Source: a virus. From it: DNA of 64,000 bases. Below, piece by piece: positions 9,991 to 64,000 of the stretch. The notes under the pieces were generated by a model, which saw nothing but the letters and a program-made list of their open reading frames with translations, was not told the DNA's origin and searched no databases. The stretch's first letter is position 1. Each line of letters starts with the position of its first letter. The stretch covers positions 10,467-74,466 of the IMG/VR virus record IMGVR_UViG_3300021963_000094. One strand, written 5' to 3'. The translations under genes and the position numbers were made by a program.

Positions 9991-11437
9991 TCAAAATTTT
10001 TATTACGCAGCTAAAATCGGATTCGAATTCGAATTCATGTCTTCTTTCTCTAGGAAGGAGATAGCCGAGAAAATTGGGGAAGATTTAGGGAAACAGGTAA
10101 AAGTCTTTAGAAAATACCACTCTAAATTTTCCCCAACTCGTGATATTTTTAAGCTGGAGCCTGATTTTTCTGGGGGTCTTAAGATGGTTGAGCTGATAAC
10201 CGGACCCATGGATTACTTCGAGGCAATCCCCGTTTTAATTAGAATTTTAAAATGGATAGACGAAAACGGATATACTAACGAAAGATGTGCACTCCAATTT
10301 GGTCTAAGCTTTGATAGAGTAAAATATCCTTCGTTAATAGATTTTAGCCAACTAAATCCCCTGAAATTTGTTTTGGGATTTGATGAAGAATTCATCTGGA
10401 AGAAATTTCCGGAGAGAAGAGGATCTTTATATGCGAAGTCAATCAAAAGAATATCCCCTTCTAATAGATTTGTAAGAGGACATAAAGACATTCTAGGAGA
10501 CAGAAACTCATATACTGTTTACACAGAAAAAAATATGGGTGTTAATCTAACCAAGTTACAGGACGGGTATATGGAGGTTAGGTATATGGGTGGAACGGAT
10601 TATCAGAAAAAGTACACAGACATCAAAGAAATTATAGATTATCTGATATCTCATACTTTTAATTGTCTTTTGCATAACGATACTCTTACACAAAAAGAAA
10701 CATCGACCCTTAGTGAATTGATATCTAAGGTTTATAAAGAAACTGAAAGTTTTATAGATCCTGAGTCTTTCATGAGAAACTATCCAGATCTACACGTTAC
10801 TGTCGATTTAAGAGAGGATTTACAGATAATTAAAACTTATTTTAATGAGGTTAAAAATTTCCTATACAGTTTAATTGTAGATAATGGAATCACAGAAGGA
10901 TTCTTAAACTACGACACGCAAATTGCTAAGTACCAATTAAAGGATGGTAAAACAAAAACAGCTAACATGCTAAAAGATCTAGATCTGATAGAATGTGAAA
11001 TTGAAGGAAACGTAGCAAGATGTAGAATATTTGGCTGTAAGTTAGAAAACTGCCAGATAGAAGATTCCCAGTTAGTCATGAACAATGACGTAACGGATTC
11101 TAAAATCCTTGACTGCGATCTTAGTTTTAGCAACAACATTTCAAATTCGTATATAGATTCAAAGGATAGAGAAATCAGCTGCGAGGTTACTGGCGGTGTT
11201 ATTAGGTCTGGTTATATAACAAAACTGGCTGAGATATCATCTTCAACTGAAATTATCAGTAATGGTGCAGATCCTAAAGGTAAAGACAAAGGAAAAGGAA
11301 AGGGTGGAAAAATGATTAAATCCACAATTTTCCCAGATAGAAACTACGAGGATATCGTAAAACCAGAGCCTTTCGAGGATCTAAATAATCGAAGACCATC
11401 TTTTTCCGTAAACCAGCTGTATAAAAATAATAATTAA
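9977..11437 (+). CDS. Putative amidoligase-like (COOH-NH2 ligase fold) protein with a C-terminal beta-helix-like region
   Basis: TTG start overlapping the S1 gene. Motifs IGFEFEF, ELITGPM and MEVRYMGG are present. C-terminal short repeats (CEIEG/CRIFG/CKLEN/CQIED/SKILD). Confidence 0.65.
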   Translation: MKILDQNFYYAAKIGFEFEFMSSFSRKEIAEKIGEDLGKQVKVFRKYHSKFSPTRDIFKLEPDFSGGLKMVELITGPMDYFEAIPVLIRILKWIDENGYTNERCALQFGLSFDRVKYPSLIDFSQLNPLKFVLGFDEEFIWKKFPERRGSLYAKSIKRISPSNRFVRGHKDILGDRNSYTVYTEKNMGVNLTKLQDGYMEVRYMGGTDYQKKYTDIKEIIDYLISHTFNCLLHNDTLTQKETSTLSELISKVYKETESFIDPESFMRNYPDLHVTVDLREDLQIIKTYFNEVKNFLYSLIVDNGITEGFLNYDTQIAKYQLKDGKTKTANMLKDLDLIECEIEGNVARCRIFGCKLENCQIEDSQLVMNNDVTDSKILDCDLSFSNNISNSYIDSKDREISCEVTGGVIRSGYITKLAEISSSTEIISNGADPKGKDKGKGKGGKMIKSTIFPDRNYEDIVKPEPFEDLNNRRPSFSVNQLYKNNN

Positions 11438-48978: not shown

Positions 48979-48986
48979 TATCTTTG

Positions 48987-48995
48987 GATATATAA
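48987..48995 (+). promoter_or_regulatory. Putative late promoter motif (GATATATAA)
   Basis: Recurrent motif upstream of 49007. Confidence 0.65.
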
Positions 48996-49006
48996 AATAA
49001 AAAAAG

Positions 49007-49699
49007 ATGAGACATCTCCAATCATTCGAATTACTAGAGAGCAGTAATAAATATGTTAAGTCGTATACCCCTGAAAAATACAAAAAAATCACGGGTAGTG
49101 ATTCTGCCCCTGGATTTACTGGGTGGATTTATAATATTTTCATGTCTCTGAAGAGTAATTTTGAGAATATGGATAATTTCTTTATGAGTAATATCTACAT
49201 GAAAGATATCCACGGAAAACCAATCGATACCGGAATGGGATGGCTAATTGGACAGGCTGGGTCACTTGCCACGTCTGTTGCAGCCAAAATTTTCGAGCCT
49301 AGTGAATTTATTAGCACAGATTGGAAATCTTCTGACGGATCTACTATAACCCCTCCAACATCAGATAAAGATGTGAAACCGGAGCATCTTAGATTGTTCA
49401 ACGATAATTTCGCAAAAAAAGATCTTCCTAATATCAAGAACGACGGGGATATGAAAAACTGGATTACAGACTTCTATAAAAAATCAGGCACCCCTCCAGG
49501 AAAGATAAGATGGGTAGATGATGCAGCATCAACTGCTAGCAACACATACTACAATAGATCAATGGGATATGGCGGAACGGAGGTAGAATCTGGATCGGGA
49601 GGAGTAGGAACCGCAATGAATATAGCAAGCGCAGCATCATCTTTACTTCCGATTGGGAAGGCAGGTAAGATAGCAGCTACTGTATTAAAAAAATCATAA
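49007..49699 (+). CDS. Hypothetical protein with CTS-like N-terminus (candidate internal head protein)
   Basis: Starts MRHLQSFELLES; preceded by the late motif. Confidence 0.6.
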   Translation: MRHLQSFELLESSNKYVKSYTPEKYKKITGSDSAPGFTGWIYNIFMSLKSNFENMDNFFMSNIYMKDIHGKPIDTGMGWLIGQAGSLATSVAAKIFEPSEFISTDWKSSDGSTITPPTSDKDVKPEHLRLFNDNFAKKDLPNIKNDGDMKNWITDFYKKSGTPPGKIRWVDDAASTASNTYYNRSMGYGGTEVESGSGGVGTAMNIASAASSLLPIGKAGKIAATVLKKS

Positions 49700-52408: not shown

Positions 52409-52434
52409 AAATCCTGCAATCGCAGGATTTTTTT
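52409..52434 (+). terminator. Rho-independent terminator
   Basis: AAATCCTGC-aatc-GCAGGATTT followed by a T-tract. Confidence 0.9.
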
Positions 52435-52455
52435 ACGTGGATATGTGGTACATTT

Positions 52456-52465
52456 GAATATATAA
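52456..52465 (+). promoter_or_regulatory. Putative late promoter motif (GAATATATAA)
   Basis: Recurrent motif between the terminator and the ATG at 52482. Confidence 0.7.
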
Positions 52466-52481
52466 AGCAAAAAACATAGGA

Positions 52482-53291
52482 ATGTCTAAATTAGTAAAAT
52501 GGAAAGACTATAGCAAAATCTACGAGGATGCTAATTCCAATACAGGTATCGATGAGGTAGCTGCCAAAAAAATACAAAAATGCCAGATTATTTTAATAAC
52601 CCAAGCGGCATTTTTTGGCCAGCTTTGCATGAATCTAAAATTCATAGAGGATAGAAATTTAAGATTCAAAACCATGGCTACCGACGGAATGAATATTTAT
52701 TATGATCCAGGTTTCGTTAATGATCACACGGATGCAGAAATTAGATGGGTAATATGTCATGAGATATTACACTGCTCTTTGCATCACTTTTTAAGAAAGC
52801 AGGCAAATCCTAGTATTTGGAATATGGCAGCTGATTATGAAATCAATCAATTGATAGATCCTAAAAATTATACATCTAAGCCAACTTATCAAAATGCTTT
52901 GGGAACAATGCCTTCTGGTGCTTTAGGTGGTTCTGGTGATAAAGATAAAGGATTTTTAAATGGCGATTACAAAGGTAAAGCAGCAGAGCAAATCTATCAA
53001 ATGCTCATAGAAAATAACACACAAGTACCTCCTGAAGAAGGGTGGAATTACGGAGGGGTTCAGCCTCCTGTCATGGTTTCTGCCCCTCCGGGATCTGGCG
53101 GTGGGAATGATGAAGATTATGGTGAAAAAGCAAAGGTTGGTGATTATGTTGCCTTACCTGGTGGAGGATACGGAAAGATCGAATCAATTGATCCTGCAAC
53201 AGGTGATGCTGATATTACACAAGTAACAGAGCCAGATTTGAGGTCAATGATTGAATCAAAAACGGGTAAAACAGTTAAAAAAATAAGCTAA
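52482..53291 (+). CDS. HEXXH putative metallopeptidase (DUF2201 N-terminal-like) with CTS-like N-terminus
   Basis: TMATDG..IYYDP.F, VICHEILHC and WNMAADYEINQ; begins MSKLVKWKDYSKIYE. Confidence 0.85.
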   Translation: MSKLVKWKDYSKIYEDANSNTGIDEVAAKKIQKCQIILITQAAFFGQLCMNLKFIEDRNLRFKTMATDGMNIYYDPGFVNDHTDAEIRWVICHEILHCSLHHFLRKQANPSIWNMAADYEINQLIDPKNYTSKPTYQNALGTMPSGALGGSGDKDKGFLNGDYKGKAAEQIYQMLIENNTQVPPEEGWNYGGVQPPVMVSAPPGSGGGNDEDYGEKAKVGDYVALPGGGYGKIESIDPATGDADITQVTEPDLRSMIESKTGKTVKKIS

Positions 53292-53301
53292 TTATAATAA
53301 T

Positions 53302-54231
53302 ATGAAATTTAGTGTAAAGGATTTAAGGAAAATTGAGGTTGAGTATGAGCCAACACCGCCACCACCTACCCCACCACCGGGTGAAGATCCACCCCCTCCA
53401 CTTCCCCCAATGCCACCGGGGGAAGAAAAACCATGGAATGAAAAACCAGATCCGAACGAAAAAGGTGGAGATGGCCCAGGCAAAGAGGGTCAAGGGACTA
53501 AACCTAAATTAGTGTCTAAGAAAATAGAATCTGAAGAAGATCTTAAAAAATTCTGGGAGTCTAAACTAGAAGAGGCAAAAGACAGACATGCTGGTGATAT
53601 TCCAGGAGAATTAATGAGAGCAATCGAAAAACTCCTGGGTGTTAAAGTTGATTGGAAACAGGAATTAAGAAAGATGATTAGCAGCTTGAGTAGCAAGGCT
53701 GATTATTTCTTACCTAATAGAAGATTTCTTGCAACTGGTGCTCAATGGGGATCTAAAAAAAGAAAGGAAGCTTTTGAATCTTTGGTAATTATAGCGGACA
53801 CATCAGGATCTGTTAGTCAAAAGGAACTAGAACAATTTGTTTCCGAAGCTATGGATATAATGGAATCATTTAAGCCTAAGGAGACTTATCTTCTCTGGTG
53901 CGATACCACAGTATATGAACCAGTTGACGTGATTAAAAAAGGAGAAACCTGGAATTATCGCAAAGCGTATGGCGGAGGTGGAACAAGTTTCATCCCCCCT
54001 GTTGCTTGGATAGAGGAAAATATCATCAAGAAGGGTAAGAAATTAGGACCTGTACTTTTCTTTACTGATGGCGAGCCAAATACAGGGCCTAACGGCGGAT
54101 GGCCAAAAGAGACAGAATATAGTATTAGAAGCTATGTAAATAAATTTTTCTGGATTATACTAGGAGAAGGCGGGGTACCAAGAAAGCACGTAAAAGTTCC
54201 TTTCGGGAAGAGAATTGATCTTATCATGTAA
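53302..54231 (+). CDS. VWA-like domain protein (DUF2201 C-terminal-like)
   Basis: VDWKQELR, PNRR, MIDAS DTSGS, GGGGTSF and FFTDG; Pro-rich N-terminal linker. Confidence 0.88.
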   Translation: MKFSVKDLRKIEVEYEPTPPPPTPPPGEDPPPPLPPMPPGEEKPWNEKPDPNEKGGDGPGKEGQGTKPKLVSKKIESEEDLKKFWESKLEEAKDRHAGDIPGELMRAIEKLLGVKVDWKQELRKMISSLSSKADYFLPNRRFLATGAQWGSKKRKEAFESLVIIADTSGSVSQKELEQFVSEAMDIMESFKPKETYLLWCDTTVYEPVDVIKKGETWNYRKAYGGGGTSFIPPVAWIEENIIKKGKKLGPVLFFTDGEPNTGPNGGWPKETEYSIRSYVNKFFWIILGEGGVPRKHVKVPFGKRIDLIM

Positions 54232-54234
54232 TAA

Positions 54235-54243
54235 GATATATAA
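54235..54243 (+). promoter_or_regulatory. Putative late promoter motif (GATATATAA)
   Basis: Recurrent motif; ATATATAAAGCAAAA is identical to the sequence upstream of 52482. Confidence 0.7.
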
Positions 54244-54264
54244 AGCAAAATAACAAAATAAAAA

Positions 54265-55809
54265 ATGGCAAGAATTAAGAAGTTTAGCGACTATGTGAAC
54301 GAGGACTACTCGTTCAAAGGAGCTATACAAAAAGGAAAGGAATTATTTGCAAAAGCTGGTGACTGGGTTTCTGGCTTTATCTCAAAATTAAAGCAAGGTA
54401 TTTTTCCTGCAATTCCAGAGGGACCTAAAGCAGGAGCTCCTATGGTTGCATATCTATCACCAAGCGGAAAAAGATCAGTGGTGGATCAGATTAAAAATTT
54501 ATACGGGGTTACAGCTGAGGAATCCGCAGAAGCTACCTTAGATTTGGATAATCAACAAATAGAGGAAGCTATGAAGGATCTATCATATCCAGGAAAAGAC
54601 GTTATTAATATCAATGCTGCAGAGTTAGCTGATGAAATCATAACAAGATACGAAACATTAGTAGACGGTGGTTTCAGCAAGCCTATCTTCATATACGGAG
54701 CACCTGGTATTGGAAAAACTGAAATCGTTGGACAAGCATGTGATGCTTTAGGTATAGACCTAATGACAATAGATTTACAGTTCATGGACCCTGCAGACTT
54801 TTTAGGTATACCTTCGGTTGTAGATATTGCTTCTGAAGATCCAAAAGGTGAAGGTGTTACTAGAACAAACCCTCCTATTTGGTTGCCAAGAGATAATGGA
54901 CCAGAAGGTAAAGGCGGTATCCTATTTTTTGACGAGATGAACAGAGCTCAACAACCGGTTAGAACTGGTATGATGAACTTGGCTCAAGGTAGAAGAATTA
55001 ATACATATAAGCTTCCTTCAAATTGGTTAATCGTAGCAGCTGGAAACAGAGAAAGCGATGATAGACCAGGTGAAGTTGAACCAATCAGTACTGCACTTGC
55101 GGATCGTTTCTCTATCTACAATTATGTACCGACAGTAAAAGGATTCCAGGACTATGTGACAACATCAGAGGTTCCTTTAAAAGGAGCTATGGGTGCTAGA
55201 CCAAGAGAGGTTGTTATTCCTGAATTATTATCATTCTTAGAATACTCTGACGATTATTTCCACAATTTGGATCCGCAATCTCCTGATGTTAAATTTGCTA
55301 CACCTAGAGGTTGGATCGATGCTTCTAAGCTTCTTTATTCCAAAATGAAAAGATTAGAAAAACAAGGAAAAGTTAGCAACGAGATTTCTGCAGATGAACT
55401 TAAGAAGGTATTCCAAACGGAAGTTGGATTCTCTGCAGCTAATGCTTTTGTTAAATTCTATGAGGTAGTACAAAGTATTCCTCTTGCTGATGTTATGAAA
55501 GTATTTGATGATCCAAATTCAGCTCCAGTTCCTAAACCGATTCAAAAATCAGATCCTGGTAAATTTAATACAACATACGAGCCAGATATTATGTTTGCTA
55601 CAATAGCAGCTATTGTTTCTAAGTCTGAGAAAATTAAACCTCTTACAGCTGATCAGTATTCAAACGCTGTTGATTATGCAATCAGATTGGATTCAGCATC
55701 ATACGGAGCTTCCTTCATAGCTATGTTAAATTCCAAGCACGATTACATTAAACTTGATAGAGCATACACAATGCATCTTAAGAAGTTCACGTCACACTAC
55801 GGTCTTTAA
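54265..55809 (+). CDS. MoxR-related AAA+ ATPase with CTS-like N-terminus
   Basis: Walker A GAPGIGKT, Walker B ILFFDEMN, IVAAGN, ALADRF and TPRGW; begins MARIKKFSDYVNE. Confidence 0.9.
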   Translation: MARIKKFSDYVNEDYSFKGAIQKGKELFAKAGDWVSGFISKLKQGIFPAIPEGPKAGAPMVAYLSPSGKRSVVDQIKNLYGVTAEESAEATLDLDNQQIEEAMKDLSYPGKDVININAAELADEIITRYETLVDGGFSKPIFIYGAPGIGKTEIVGQACDALGIDLMTIDLQFMDPADFLGIPSVVDIASEDPKGEGVTRTNPPIWLPRDNGPEGKGGILFFDEMNRAQQPVRTGMMNLAQGRRINTYKLPSNWLIVAAGNRESDDRPGEVEPISTALADRFSIYNYVPTVKGFQDYVTTSEVPLKGAMGARPREVVIPELLSFLEYSDDYFHNLDPQSPDVKFATPRGWIDASKLLYSKMKRLEKQGKVSNEISADELKKVFQTEVGFSAANAFVKFYEVVQSIPLADVMKVFDDPNSAPVPKPIQKSDPGKFNTTYEPDIMFATIAAIVSKSEKIKPLTADQYSNAVDYAIRLDSASYGASFIAMLNSKHDYIKLDRAYTMHLKKFTSHYGL

Positions 55810-55827
55810 TAGAACCAAATTAATATC

Positions 55828-55854
55828 AAAACCCCTGAATTTCAGGGGTTTTTT
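55828..55854 (+). terminator. Rho-independent terminator
   Basis: AAAACCCCTGA-att-TCAGGGGTTTT plus Ts. Confidence 0.9.
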
Positions 55855-55903: not shown

Positions 55904-56443
55904 ATGAAATTCATTAAAGATTTTAAAGCATACAAAATAAACGAGGAAGCTGGATATGGCAACGACTATTTTGTTGATCAAAAAGTTGAAAAATCCCAAT
56001 ACTACTTTTTTAAAGTTGGTGAGGGCGAAGAAGAAATTGGCCTAATCGTTAAAATCGGAAAATTTGCAAAATCTGCTATCATTTCAGAGAACGAAAAAAG
56101 CTATGGTGTTATTCACATAGAACCTATCGATGTTAATGACATGGATGATTATTTGGTGAATGACAGCGAGTATAGATCAAGAGAGGATGACAAATTCTCT
56201 ATCCCTAGCGATTTACTGGCTCAAACCTTTGACATCATCGAAAAAGCAATGGACAATTACCTAGAGAAGAATCCAAAGGTAACTAAGTTCTATGATGAGA
56301 TGTTGGAGAATCTAGAAATGACCCCGGAAGAATACACAAGCTTTGTTACACCTAAGATCGAAGATTGGTCAGAGGGAAGATGGAGTGTTCAGTCAGGATC
56401 CACACAAAGCGTTCTAATCTACATGAAAACATCCCATGAGTAA
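55904..56443 (+). CDS. Hypothetical protein with CTS-like N-terminus
   Basis: Begins MKFIKDFKAYKINE. Confidence 0.7.
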   Translation: MKFIKDFKAYKINEEAGYGNDYFVDQKVEKSQYYFFKVGEGEEEIGLIVKIGKFAKSAIISENEKSYGVIHIEPIDVNDMDDYLVNDSEYRSREDDKFSIPSDLLAQTFDIIEKAMDNYLEKNPKVTKFYDEMLENLEMTPEEYTSFVTPKIEDWSEGRWSVQSGSTQSVLIYMKTSHE

Positions 56444-56753
56444 TTTAAAGAAATATGGTGAATTTATCAATGAGTCTTTAACTCCTGTCATGTACATGAG
56501 TGTTAAGAACCCATTGAAAAATTCAATAGTTAAATTCTTATACGAAAAAGACAAAGCCACCCGAAAGGAAATCATGGAGTTTGCCGCAACCCTTGGCGAA
56601 AGCGGACAATCCGTGGATAGAAGATGGATCTCTAGAAACAAGCAATTAATCAAATGTGTTGTCTCTGAAGAGGGTCCAAACCACTATTCTCTAACCAAAT
56701 TAGGGAAAAGATTTGCTAAAAGCCTCATAGTTAATGAAACTAAAGGGGCATAG
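56436..56753 (+). CDS. Winged-helix-like putative DNA-binding protein with CTS-like N-terminus
   Basis: Begins MSNLKKYGEFINE; wHTH-like pattern IVKFLYEKDKATRKEI...HYSLTKLGKRF. Confidence 0.6.
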   Translation: MSNLKKYGEFINESLTPVMYMSVKNPLKNSIVKFLYEKDKATRKEIMEFAATLGESGQSVDRRWISRNKQLIKCVVSEEGPNHYSLTKLGKRFAKSLIVNETKGA

Positions 56754-61274: not shown

Positions 61275-64000
61275 TTGGCACAGAAAACCAGACCGGAACT
61301 TAGGATACGATTTCAAACGGGTGATATACCAACCCAACAAGACTTCGAAGATTTATTCGACAGTTTCTATAACATATTAGAAGATCCCCTTAATACTGCA
61401 GTGGGACCGACCGGAGCAGCAGGTCCAATGGGTGCTCAAGGTGATCCCGGAGAGACAGGAGCACAAGGTGCTCAAGGTGGTCCTGGTGTAAACGGAGCTC
61501 AAGGAGCAACCGGACCAACTGGTCTTCAAGGAATAGGCGGAGCACAGGGATATGCAGGATCCGACGGAGCACAAGGAGCCAAGGGAGGTACTGGTGCACA
61601 AGGAGCTGCTGGTGCAGGAGCGCAAGGAGCAGCTGGACCACAAGGAGCAGCAGGTTCTGCCGGATCTCAAGGTTTAGATGGTGCTGATGGAGCACAGGGT
61701 TCAAAGGGAGATACAGGAGCGCAAGGTTCAAAAGGCGATGCTGGTTCAACAGGAGCCCAAGGATCTAAAGGTGATGCTGGATCTACGGGAGCACAAGGTT
61801 CAAAGGGAGACACAGGATCCCAGGGTTTAAAAGGCGATACAGGATCACAAGGATCTGCTGGTGTTGGCGTACCTACTGGCGGAACTCAAGGGCAAATTCT
61901 AGCAAAAAATAGTAACGGAGACTACGACACATATTGGATAACTAATACTGGTGGAACTAGTGGTGGTTCAGGAGCACAGGGTGACACAGGAGCACAGGGT
62001 GACACAGGAGCACAAGGAGCACAAGGAGCACAAGGATTATCAGGAGCTCAAGGTTCAAAGGGTGACACGGGAGAACAAGGATTATCAGGAGCTCAAGGCT
62101 CAAAGGGTGACACCGGAGCACAGGGATTATCAGGAGCTCAAGGTTCAAAGGGTGACACTGGAGCACAGGGATTATCAGGAGCTCAAGGAGCTAATGGTTC
62201 CGATGGAGCACAGGGATCACAAGGAGCAACTGGTTCTGATGGTGTAGACGGAGCACAAGGAGCAACTGGTTCTGATGGTGTAGACGGAGCACAAGGAGCT
62301 AATGGCTCCGATGGAGCACAAGGAGCAGATGGTATAGATGGAGCACAAGGTGCTATCGGATCACAAGGAGCAACTGGTTCTGATGGTGTAGACGGAGCAC
62401 AGGGTTCTGATGGAGCACAAGGAGCAACTGGTTCCGATGGAGCACAAGGAGCAGATGGTATAGACGGAGCACAAGGATCTAATGGAGCAGACGGAGCGCA
62501 AGGATCTAATGGTATAGACGGAGCACAAGGAGCAACTGGTTCCGATGGAGCACAGGGTTCTGATGGAGCACAAGGAGCTAATGGTTCCGACGGAGCTCAA
62601 GGAGCTAATGGAGCAGACGGAGCACAGGGAGCTAATGGTTCTGATGGAGCACAAGGATCTAATGGAGCAGATGGTATAGATGGAGCTCAGGGAGCAACTG
62701 GTTCTGATGGAGCTCAGGGAGCAACTGGTTCTGATGGAGCTCAGGGAGCAACTGGTTCTGATGGAGCTCAGGGAGCAACTGGTTCTGATGGAGCTCAGGG
62801 AGCAACTGGTTCTGATGGAGCACAGGGAGCAACTGGTTCCGATGGAGCACAGGGAGCAGATGGTATAGATGGAGCGCAAGGAGCAACTGGTTCTGATGGA
62901 GCACAGGGAGCAACTGGTTCTGATGGAGCACAGGGAGCAGATGGTATAGATGGAGCGCAAGGTGCTGATGGAGCACAGGGATATACTGGATTACAGGGTG
63001 AACAGGGAGCGCAAGGTGCTGAGGGGGCGCAAGGTACTGATGGAGCACAAGGATCGATCGGAGCAGACGGAGCACAAGGATCTAATGGATCTGATGGAGC
63101 ACAAGGAGCAACCGGTTTTGACGGAGCACAAGGAGCAGAGGGAGCACAGGGAGCAACGGGTTCTGATGGAGCACAAGGAGCAACTGGTTTCGATGGAGCA
63201 CAGGGAGCAACGGGTGCTGAAGGAGCACAAGGAGCTAACGGATTCGACGGAGCTCAAGGAGCAGAAGGTGCTTCTGGGACATCCGGAATATCCGGTGTTG
63301 ATGGAGCACAAGGAGCAGAGGGAGCACAAGGAGCAGAGGGAGCACAAGGAGATTCTGGAGCAGATGGAGCACAGGGAGCGCAGGGATTTTCTGGTCTGCA
63401 GGGAGATACTGGAGCACAGGGATCAACCGGTTCTGATGGGGCACAAGGAGATTCTGGAGCAGACGGAGCACAAGGAGCGCAGGGATTTTCTGGTCTACAG
63501 GGTGACACTGGAGCACAGGGAGCAACGGGTTTCGATGGAGCACAAGGAGATACCGGAGCACAAGGAGCAACAGGTTCCGATGGAGCACAAGGAGCAACAG
63601 GTTCCGATGGAGCACAAGGAGATCAAGGTCTTCAAGGAGCACAAGGTGACACAGGAGCACAAGGTGACACAGGAGCACAAGGTGACACAGGAGCACAAGG
63701 TGACACAGGAGCACAAGGAGATCAAGGTCTTCAAGGAGCACAAGGTGACACAGGTCTTCAAGGAGCACAAGGTGACACAGGAGCACAAGGTGACACAGGA
63801 GCACAAGGTGACACAGGAGCACAAGGTGACATAGGAGCACAGGGTGACACAGGTCTTCAAGGAGCACAAGGTGACACAGGTCTTCAAGGAGCACAAGGAG
63901 ATCAAGGTCTTCAAGGAGCACAAGGAGATCAAGGTCTTCAAGGAGCACAAGGAGATCAAGGTCTTCAAGGAGCACAAGGTGACACAGGAGCACAAGGTGA
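61275..64000 (+). CDS. Long collagen-like (GAQ-GXY) tail fibre/whisker protein, 3'-truncated by the window edge
   Basis: Not in the ORF track because it has no stop in the window. TTG start gives [31 protein letters not shown], then Gly-X-Y repeats in the same frame up to base 64000. Confidence 0.9.
61404..64000 (+). repeat. Collagen-encoding tandem repeats (GGAGCACAA/GGAGCTCAG-based 18-45 bp units)
   Basis: Blocks of [30 protein letters not shown] and GAQ-GDQ-GLQ. Confidence 0.95.

Follow-up and report, generated by a model that had tools for sequence, protein, structure and literature searches.

We analysed a 64,000-nucleotide stretch of viral DNA (positions 10,467 to 74,466 of the IMG/VR virus record IMGVR_UViG_3300021963_000094; hereafter the window), in which three adjacent genes encode a metallopeptidase of the zincin type, a protein with a von Willebrand factor A (VWA) domain, and a MoxR-type AAA+ ATPase. 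The source is an uncultured jumbo phage whose host phylum is Bacteroidota. Both the peptidase and the ATPase begin with a short leader peptide that resembles the capsid-targeting sequence of phage T4, and the same leader was found on unrelated proteins of this phage and its relatives. Judging from the sequences, we lean towards the view that the leader marks the ATPase and the peptidase for the prohead, and that the module is packed into the virion.

A leader peptide on the ATPase, the peptidase and unrelated proteins

The N-termini of the peptidase (MSKLVKWKDYSKIYE) and of the ATPase (MARIKKFSDYVNE) read as the original prediction had quoted them. The leader keeps the spacing of the T4 targeting sequence MKTYQEFIAE, i.e., an aromatic residue, two residues, a second aromatic residue, Ile, Val or Leu, one residue, and Glu. 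Candidate ends of the form (L/I/V)-x-Glu occur twice in each protein (VNE13 and IEE101 in the ATPase; IYE15 and IDE25 in the peptidase). Proteases of the gp21 type cut at (V/I/L)xE-type sites.

A search of 5.8 billion proteins identified more than 100 ATPase homologues of ~500 residues, with identities down to 36%, and nearly all of them begin with M-x-(K/R)-I-x-x-F-x-x-F-(V/I)-N-E-(S/G/D)-Y. The peptidase homologues have a variant of the leader, e.g., MKRILSFSDFAIFE or MRRILGWSEFKLFE. We then scanned 79 IMG/VR loci fetched with the ATPase profile (2080 open reading frames (ORFs), 448,369 residues). The strict pattern [FYW]xx[FYW][VIL]NE was found 78 times within the first ~20 residues of a protein, versus 15 times elsewhere. 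The leader occurs on at least eight unrelated protein families, and on 4-5 genes of the window; it was never present on the VWA protein in all loci scanned. At its conserved positions synonymous codons vary freely (AAT 31, AAC 29; GAA 39, GAG 21), so selection acts on the peptide and not on the RNA, and a nucleotide-level element such as a translation enhancer was rejected on this ground.

The presence of the leader on the ATPase and its presence on the peptidase co-occur across loci (27/5/8/17, p=9e-5), and both leaders were lost together in two pairs of loci (L003/L006 and L019/L023). As far as these sequences tell, the two leaders are gained and lost together. In the region 8204-11212 of L003/L006, the peptidase leader and the whole ATPase extension described below are missing, and the neighbouring genes for proteins of 179 and 105 residues keep their leaders.

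Two relatives provide a wider view. The first, G003 (219 kb), and this contig are collinear, and their structural genes have nearly identical N-termini; the second (G005) is a complete genome of 434.5 kb with terminal repeats. Leader-bearing genes are spread over the whole of both genomes, including the head module, far from the ATPase. In G003, a looser version of the pattern matched 15 proteins, against 2.2 expected from shuffled N-termini; shuffled N-termini and internal Met-started segments match it at a rate of ~1%. The capsid protein of G003 and G005 has a conserved ...KYCHYHSLNE↓SAGAYNT near its N-terminus (arrows mark putative cleavage points; the Glu is residue 43 in G003, LNE43), and the ORFs directly downstream of the capsid gene begin with MKKYSEFISE, which is identical to the T4 sequence at 7/10 positions, ...NPFLNE and MKVLRYSEFSLNE. 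Both genomes were searched for T4-type head genes, and both have a Gp23 capsid protein and a Portal_T4 protein above the Pfam cut-offs. An S77 (gp21-type) protease was found above the Pfam cut-off in these two and in two further relatives (G004 and G007).

We did not find the leader in cellular homologues: 79 other cellular loci (965 ORFs) had no match to the strict pattern. Among 185,579 species genomes, a single locus covered the N-terminal extension of the ATPase, and it lies on a phage-like contig. Cellular homologues with the same N-terminal peptides would have contradicted the original prediction, which passed this check. The phage-like locus (L108) is a 26.8-kb contig, CALAZP010000224.1, in a Saprospirales metagenome-assembled genome, and it has the module together with many leader genes; its peptidase and VWA genes have a distinct KOW-like ORF of 49 aa between them. 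Its binning with Saprospirales hints at the host lineage.

One leader-bearing gene of G003 (62492-63286; L091:2492-3283) encodes a CHAP-domain peptidoglycan hydrolase with the leader MRKIQSFSQFVSE. CHAP cell-wall hydrolases are a common kind of ejected protein, and this one is, from its sequence, a candidate ejected cell-wall enzyme.

The ATPase, the split zincin-VWA protein and their promoter-like motifs

The unit of three genes had been described as bounded by terminators, and the ORFs together with the hairpins and T-runs at both flanks bear this out. On the left, an intrinsic-terminator-like hairpin with a T-run (52409..52436, + strand) ends the upstream RNA-ligase fusion gene; on the right, a bidirectional terminator-like hairpin with a T-run closes the unit (55828..55854, + strand). 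All three genes are on the + strand.

The ATPase ORF (54265-55809, 514 aa) begins 33 nt after the end of the VWA gene. It consists of an N-terminal extension, residues 1-101 (54265..54567), and an AAA+ core with a helical C-terminal domain, residues 102-514 (54568..55809). The protein matches the Pfam family AAA_5 (PF07728) with 30.7 bits (cut-off 22), and its Walker A (G145-T152), Walker B (D223-E224), N261, R262 and R281 are invariant in 26 diverse homologues. An AlphaFold2 model had a mean predicted local distance difference test (pLDDT) score of 78, and the best compact matches to it in Foldseek were NorQ (TM on target 0.60-0.64) and CbbQ2 (0.65), with E ~1e-6.

The extension is conserved over ~100-130 residues in homologues and is covered by no Pfam model; sub-threshold matches of homologues to PF20030 (bpMoxR) extend over the AAA core only, and leave it unexplained. 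It starts with the leader MARIKKFSDYVNE13↓D; residues ~32-82 form a small fold, and from there a disordered linker runs to the conserved I99-E100-E101↓A102; residues 1-31 and 83-103 are disordered in the model (pLDDT <50). Both E13 and E101 are conserved in at least 90% of homologues, lie in disordered stretches, and have V or I at P3. The second Glu is located 44-46 residues before Walker A in 60 of the 107 long forms, where the background per position is 1.8%. Natural leaderless ATPases begin 34-61 residues before Walker A, and the one in L003 (65% ATPase identity) begins at the point of the second Glu. Since a conserved IxE↓A site stands at the start of natural short forms, the pro-region that could be removed would be ~101 residues long, which suggests that residues 1-101 are a propeptide. 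A loss of 13 residues had first been proposed; because of the second conserved IxE↓A site, the ATPase probably loses ~101.

The original prediction had listed the peptidase and the VWA protein as products of two genes. Their domains and motifs are as it described, with one correction: the two genes are the halves of a single family (phrog_1314). The first gene (52482..53291, 269 aa, HEILH) encodes the zincin half of a split DUF2201 protein and matches DUF2201_N (PF13203, putative metallopeptidase) with 82.3 bits (cut-off 23.2). The second (53302..54231, 309 aa, DTSGS) encodes the VWA half, and matches the rest of DUF2201_N (29.9 bits, cut-off 23.2) and the VWA-like DUF2201 (PF09967; 53.5 bits, cut-off 26.4). 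In PHROGs, the two genes match positions 11-162 and 146-389 of phrog_1314 (394 positions), with E-values of 5.5e-37 and 1.6e-38. At the junction the ORFs are in different frames, with stops closing both frames, and the split into two ORFs recurs in more than 30 diverged related loci, with the gene order pep-vwa-aaa or aaa-pep-vwa. A programmed frameshift or a sequencing error at the junction was rejected on these two grounds. As judged from these loci, a large uncultured clade has the split in common; among more distant loci, zincin-VWA fusions of 380-515 aa occur. In many jumbo phages, too, the VWA protein is of a family fused to a zinc peptidase that is SprT/minigluzincin-like.

The zinc motif of the peptidase (H93-E94-x-x-H97-x4-H102) shows no variation among 27 homologues, and in a set of 58 its conservation is at least 85%. 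The model of this protein has a minimal zincin core, weakly similar to selecase, abylysin and Wss1, and ends in a small beta-barrel. Its leader MSKLVKWKDYSKIYE is disordered (residues 1-12 with pLDDT <50), and the candidate cleavage sites are IYE15↓D and IDE25↓V. The VWA half starts with a Pro-rich linker, followed by the C-terminal part of DUF2201_N and the VWA domain. The metal ion-dependent adhesion site (MIDAS) of the latter is complete (D166-T-S168-G-S170 and T255-D256) and conserved in 61 homologues. A sequence search against solved structures yielded for the peptidase only selecase, at E ~0.7-0.9, and nothing for the VWA protein or the ATPase.

A promoter motif of structural genes had been proposed upstream of the peptidase and ATPase genes, with an identical string at both. 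The identical 15-nt string, ATATATAAAGCAAAA, is indeed present at 52458-52472 and again at 54236-54250 (+ strand), 14 nt upstream of the ATPase start codon. ATATATA was the most enriched upstream 7-mer: it precedes 10/68 genes in the window (0.4 expected), 40/233 genes of G003 (1.7 expected) and 87/657 of G005, an enrichment that is not due to chance. Genes for portal, protease, head, baseplate and fibre proteins have the motif (G)ATATATA(A) 5-27 nt ahead of the start codon; it also stands upstream of the ATPase and peptidase genes and of many genes that bear leaders. From the genes that it precedes, we infer that it is a late motif.

Upstream of the peptidase gene, a promoter-like region (52449..52472, + strand) consists of the host-type TACATTTG (TAnnTTTG) and, directly after it, AATATATAAAGCAAAA, with the structural-gene motif. 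This abutting arrangement of a host-type Bacteroidota -7 box (TATCTTTG or TACATTTG) and the phage motif (G/A)ATATATAAA was found in the window at 48979-48997 and 52449-52467, before the genes at 49007 and 52482, and also at the G003 orthologues (208080, 211603). It may represent a tandem early-plus-late promoter. Such composite boxes are rare (2/68 genes in the window, 2/233 in G003 and 4/657 in G005), and the ATPase gene has the late-type motif only.

Proposed packaging into the virion and competing explanations

The idea of a structural-gene promoter combined with a head tag stood in part: it agreed with every computational test run, i.e., on the leader, its spacing, and the S77, portal and Gp23 genes of relatives. 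If the leader is a packaging signal, it would bind the scaffolding core and carry the ATPase and the peptidase into the prohead. The VWA subunit, which has no leader, would enter in complex with its partners. Cuts after Glu by the S77 prohead protease of the T4 type would follow. In the ATPase, cuts at VNE13↓D and IEE101↓A would leave a 413-residue (~46 kDa) enzyme similar to the natural leaderless forms, and the peptidase would be cut at IYE15↓D and/or IDE25↓V. The mature machine would either stay with the DNA and be ejected into the host, where ATP is available, or act in head maturation. We rank ejection slightly ahead of maturation on the sequences at hand; injection, and host or defence proteins as targets, are speculative.

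We also put forward, as a tentative proposal that we think may well fail, a broader version of this reading. In a Bacteroidota T4-like jumbo clade, the N-terminal code M-x-(K/R)-I-x-x-F-x-x-F-V-N-E would load diverse cargo into the head, including a MoxR ATPase, a VWA adaptor and a zinc peptidase. Ejected along with the DNA, this machine would act on host or defence proteins, remodelling or cleaving them ahead of phage expression. Should the leader prove to be a capsid-targeting propeptide, genome sequence would suffice to read off which proteins this uncultured jumbo-phage group packages and ejects. An energy-dependent machine for remodelling and proteolysis would then be among phage cargo, as an injected-effector class not known in bacteriophages and as the first case of a phage capsid delivering an AAA+/protease machine. 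More generally, the MoxR/VWA/peptidase module is widespread in phages, and the present variant gives a concrete hypothesis for its function. The leader, like the T4 sequence, might find use as a packaging tag.

The closest known counterpart of the leader is the T4 targeting sequence, which is cut once by the prohead protease (PMC8442874). It belongs to IPI-III and Alt, is removed by gp21 and, as here, is an N-terminal peptide of 10-15 residues on unrelated proteins. In contrast to T4, Asn nearly always occupies P2 here, the peptide begins with an extra basic/hydrophobic prefix, M-x-(K/R)-I, and the leader of the ATPase heads a much longer conserved pro-region. The predicted cargo is a large ATP-driven enzyme, unlike the small basic proteins of T4. 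In the giant phages phiKZ, 201phi2-1 and SPN3US, head and ejection proteins are made with propeptides that are longer than 100 residues and contain multiple protease sites with a terminal Glu; their extreme N-termini are conserved among diverged proteins, and prohead targeting was proposed for them (PMC5694885). The predicted pro-region of the ATPase is similar in being long and in having several sites that end in Glu. The giant phages differ in their (S/A/G)xE motifs and belong to another lineage, and no MoxR/VWA/zincin cargo has been reported among their processed proteins.

A precedent for a virus particle carrying a MoxR/VWA machine is the Acidianus two-tailed virus, in which the MoxR ATPase p618 is a major virion component with a VWA partner, p892 (Scheele et al. 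2011, reviewed in PMC4124505). This is, however, an archaeal spindle virus; its pair has no peptidase and no cleavable leader, and was proposed to drive extracellular tail growth. We also considered the Staphylococcus jumbo phage DC4, which has an AAA ATPase gene next to a metallopeptidase-VWA gene. It is a weak precedent: the detection of the ATPase in virions by mass spectrometry, the only such detection of a homologous phage ATPase, consists of one peptide, and the protein has no N-terminal extension.

Several observations weigh against packaging. The unit is placed after the primase, helicase and RNA-ligase genes, outside the structural block, and the homologous modules of N4-like and other phages lie among replication genes and are leaderless. 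The 74-kb fragment has no head genes (S77 protease, T4-type head). Because these are absent from a fragment that is 26% complete, the prohead protease had to be inferred from relatives; the protease-encoding relatives used for this have 46% ATPase identity and collinear genomes. The alignment of the relatives' capsid N-terminus to the known cut site of T4 gp23 is ambiguous. PTm1, a relative that has been cultured, lacks the module as well as the leaders and is therefore unsuitable as a test system. The peptidase leader of the window is a weak variant, with two residues inserted relative to the consensus. The TAnnTTTG box beside the motif of the peptidase gene makes additional early transcription possible. 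Finally, an AAA+ hexamer would have no ATP supply inside a filled head.

The first alternative is a late, cytoplasmic MoxR/VWA assembly chaperone with a peptidase that processes virion proteins. It would never be packaged, and the leader would dock it transiently to the scaffold or prohead surface, or regulate it. We consider this rather unlikely, but several points speak for it. ATP is present in the cytoplasm, and a late-type promoter would suit this role equally well. The leaderless locus L003 retains the module, so the leader is not strictly needed for function. The architecture, moreover, is not new. In "group 2.2" jumbo phages a MoxR ATPase is encoded with a vWA co-chaperone fused to an N-terminal metallopeptidase, and a role in virion assembly or processing was proposed for this module (Iyer, Anantharaman, Krishnan, Burroughs, Aravind 2021, PMC7824862). 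That proposal, of an assembly chaperone, covers the same architecture as ours; packaging was not proposed in PMC7824862. The two modules share an AAA_5/MoxR ATPase, an HExxH zincin and a MIDAS VWA domain, encoded by adjacent genes of a T4-like jumbo phage, with a predicted role related to the virion. They differ in that here the zincin-VWA protein is in two ORFs, the ATPase has an extension of ~100 residues, and the ATPase and the zincin have leaders. The module type is thus already described, and occurs here as a split variant; what is new is the N-terminal peptide.

N4-like phages, cyanophage S-TIM5, Bacillus phage G and many others have ATPase homologues without the leader; their identity is below 32% in every case, and the match begins only at residue ~110-140 of the ATPase studied here. 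NorQ/NorD and CbbQ/CbbO, to which the ATPase core shows its best compact structural matches, act in maturation as chaperones whose hexamer is engaged by a VWA MIDAS partner; this likewise suits an assembly role. They are, however, cellular activases of metallo-enzymes with no peptidase, extension or viral context, and their identity is 14-18%. An unpackaged chaperone leaves four features unexplained: the same leader is found on small unrelated proteins and on the CHAP hydrolase; its end is a (V/I/L)xE site of the protease type; the disordered linker has another conserved Glu, precisely where the short forms begin; and leader genes are clustered after the capsid gene.

The composite promoter raises a second alternative, in which the unit is an early or dual-timed cassette for counter-defence or host takeover, expressed from a host-type promoter, and the leader is unrelated to capsids, being, for example, a timing degron or an interaction tag. 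The host-type box TACATTTG directly upstream of the motif of the peptidase gene, with the same arrangement at 49007 and at the G003 orthologue, would fit this explanation, as would the adjoining replication genes. We judge it unlikely, since the ATPase gene has the late-type motif only and the composite boxes are rare. We know of no degron that resembles the leader. In T4, the genes of the internal proteins have early as well as late transcription, and packaging would thus be compatible with dual timing.

Very unlikely, in our view, is a third explanation, in which the module acts on the leader: its zincin or AAA+ unfoldase would use the peptide as a substrate or recognition tag, and the system would process the tagged neighbours and itself independently of the prohead protease. 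The active site of the peptidase is intact, and the tagged genes for proteins of 179 and 105 residues are syntenic with the module in most loci. Against this, leader genes are scattered across G003 and G005, and some of them belong to the head module, which is distant from the ATPase gene; the LNE↓S element is shared by the capsid protein. Gp21-type serine proteases are characterised by cutting after Glu when P3 is hydrophobic, a specificity that we do not know from SprT- or minigluzincin-like zincins.

Lastly, a compositional accident of AT-rich gene starts, conceivable since Lys/Asn-rich N-termini are common in genomes with 35% G+C, was rejected by the shuffling of N-termini, by the ratio of N-terminal to internal matches, and by the conservation of the leader in 36%-identical homologues with free synonymous variation.

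Genome setting and related phages

The source record is a 74.5-kb contig with a CheckV completeness of 26%, which implies a jumbo phage genome of ~280 kb. Nearly all genes of the window are on the + strand. Baseplate and fibre genes occupy 1-44 kb, followed by a primase (45734), a helicase (47437) and the RNA-ligase fusion gene (50427) directly before the three-gene unit. Downstream of the unit are two unrelated leader-bearing genes (55904..56753, + strand), which start at 55904 (179 aa, leader MKFIKDFKAYKINE) and 56436 (105 aa, leader MSNLKKYGEFINE) and are syntenic with the module in most relatives.

A DNA similarity search against cultured phages gave no match, and we found no cultured phage that bears the leader. 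By its capsid protein, the phage group is related to Lak megaphages and to phages of Tenacibaculum, Flavobacterium and Chryseobacterium. In the genome of PTm1 (L212-L223) a different enriched upstream 7-mer, ATACATA(A), precedes 41 genes; its capsid protein has ...GIINE↓SYGSQG near the N-terminus, despite the absence of leaders from the genome.

G003 has a second, paralogous module on the - strand (67825-72022; L091), with the order 273-aa leader protein, leader-bearing ATPase, leader-bearing peptidase and leaderless VWA protein. Several IMG/VR contigs also have two ATPase loci. From these cases, a second copy of the module is probably located on the missing part of the present genome.

Two tandem Portal_T4 paralogues (547 and 570 aa) were found in both G003 (110635-113994) and G005 (282831-285717). 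The S77 domain lies within open frames of ~415-680 aa (413 aa at 128801-130042 in G003; the loci L084 and L085 in G004 and G005). These are far longer than T4 gp21, which suggests a protease-scaffold fusion. In G003, a scaffold candidate lies at 130192-130791.

At the end of the window (61275-64000) the G+C content rises to 54%, and a long open frame continues past the window end. The region has repetitive overlapping ORFs, with MELREQLVL repeats in an alternative frame, and looks like a repeat-rich, collagen-like or fibre gene.

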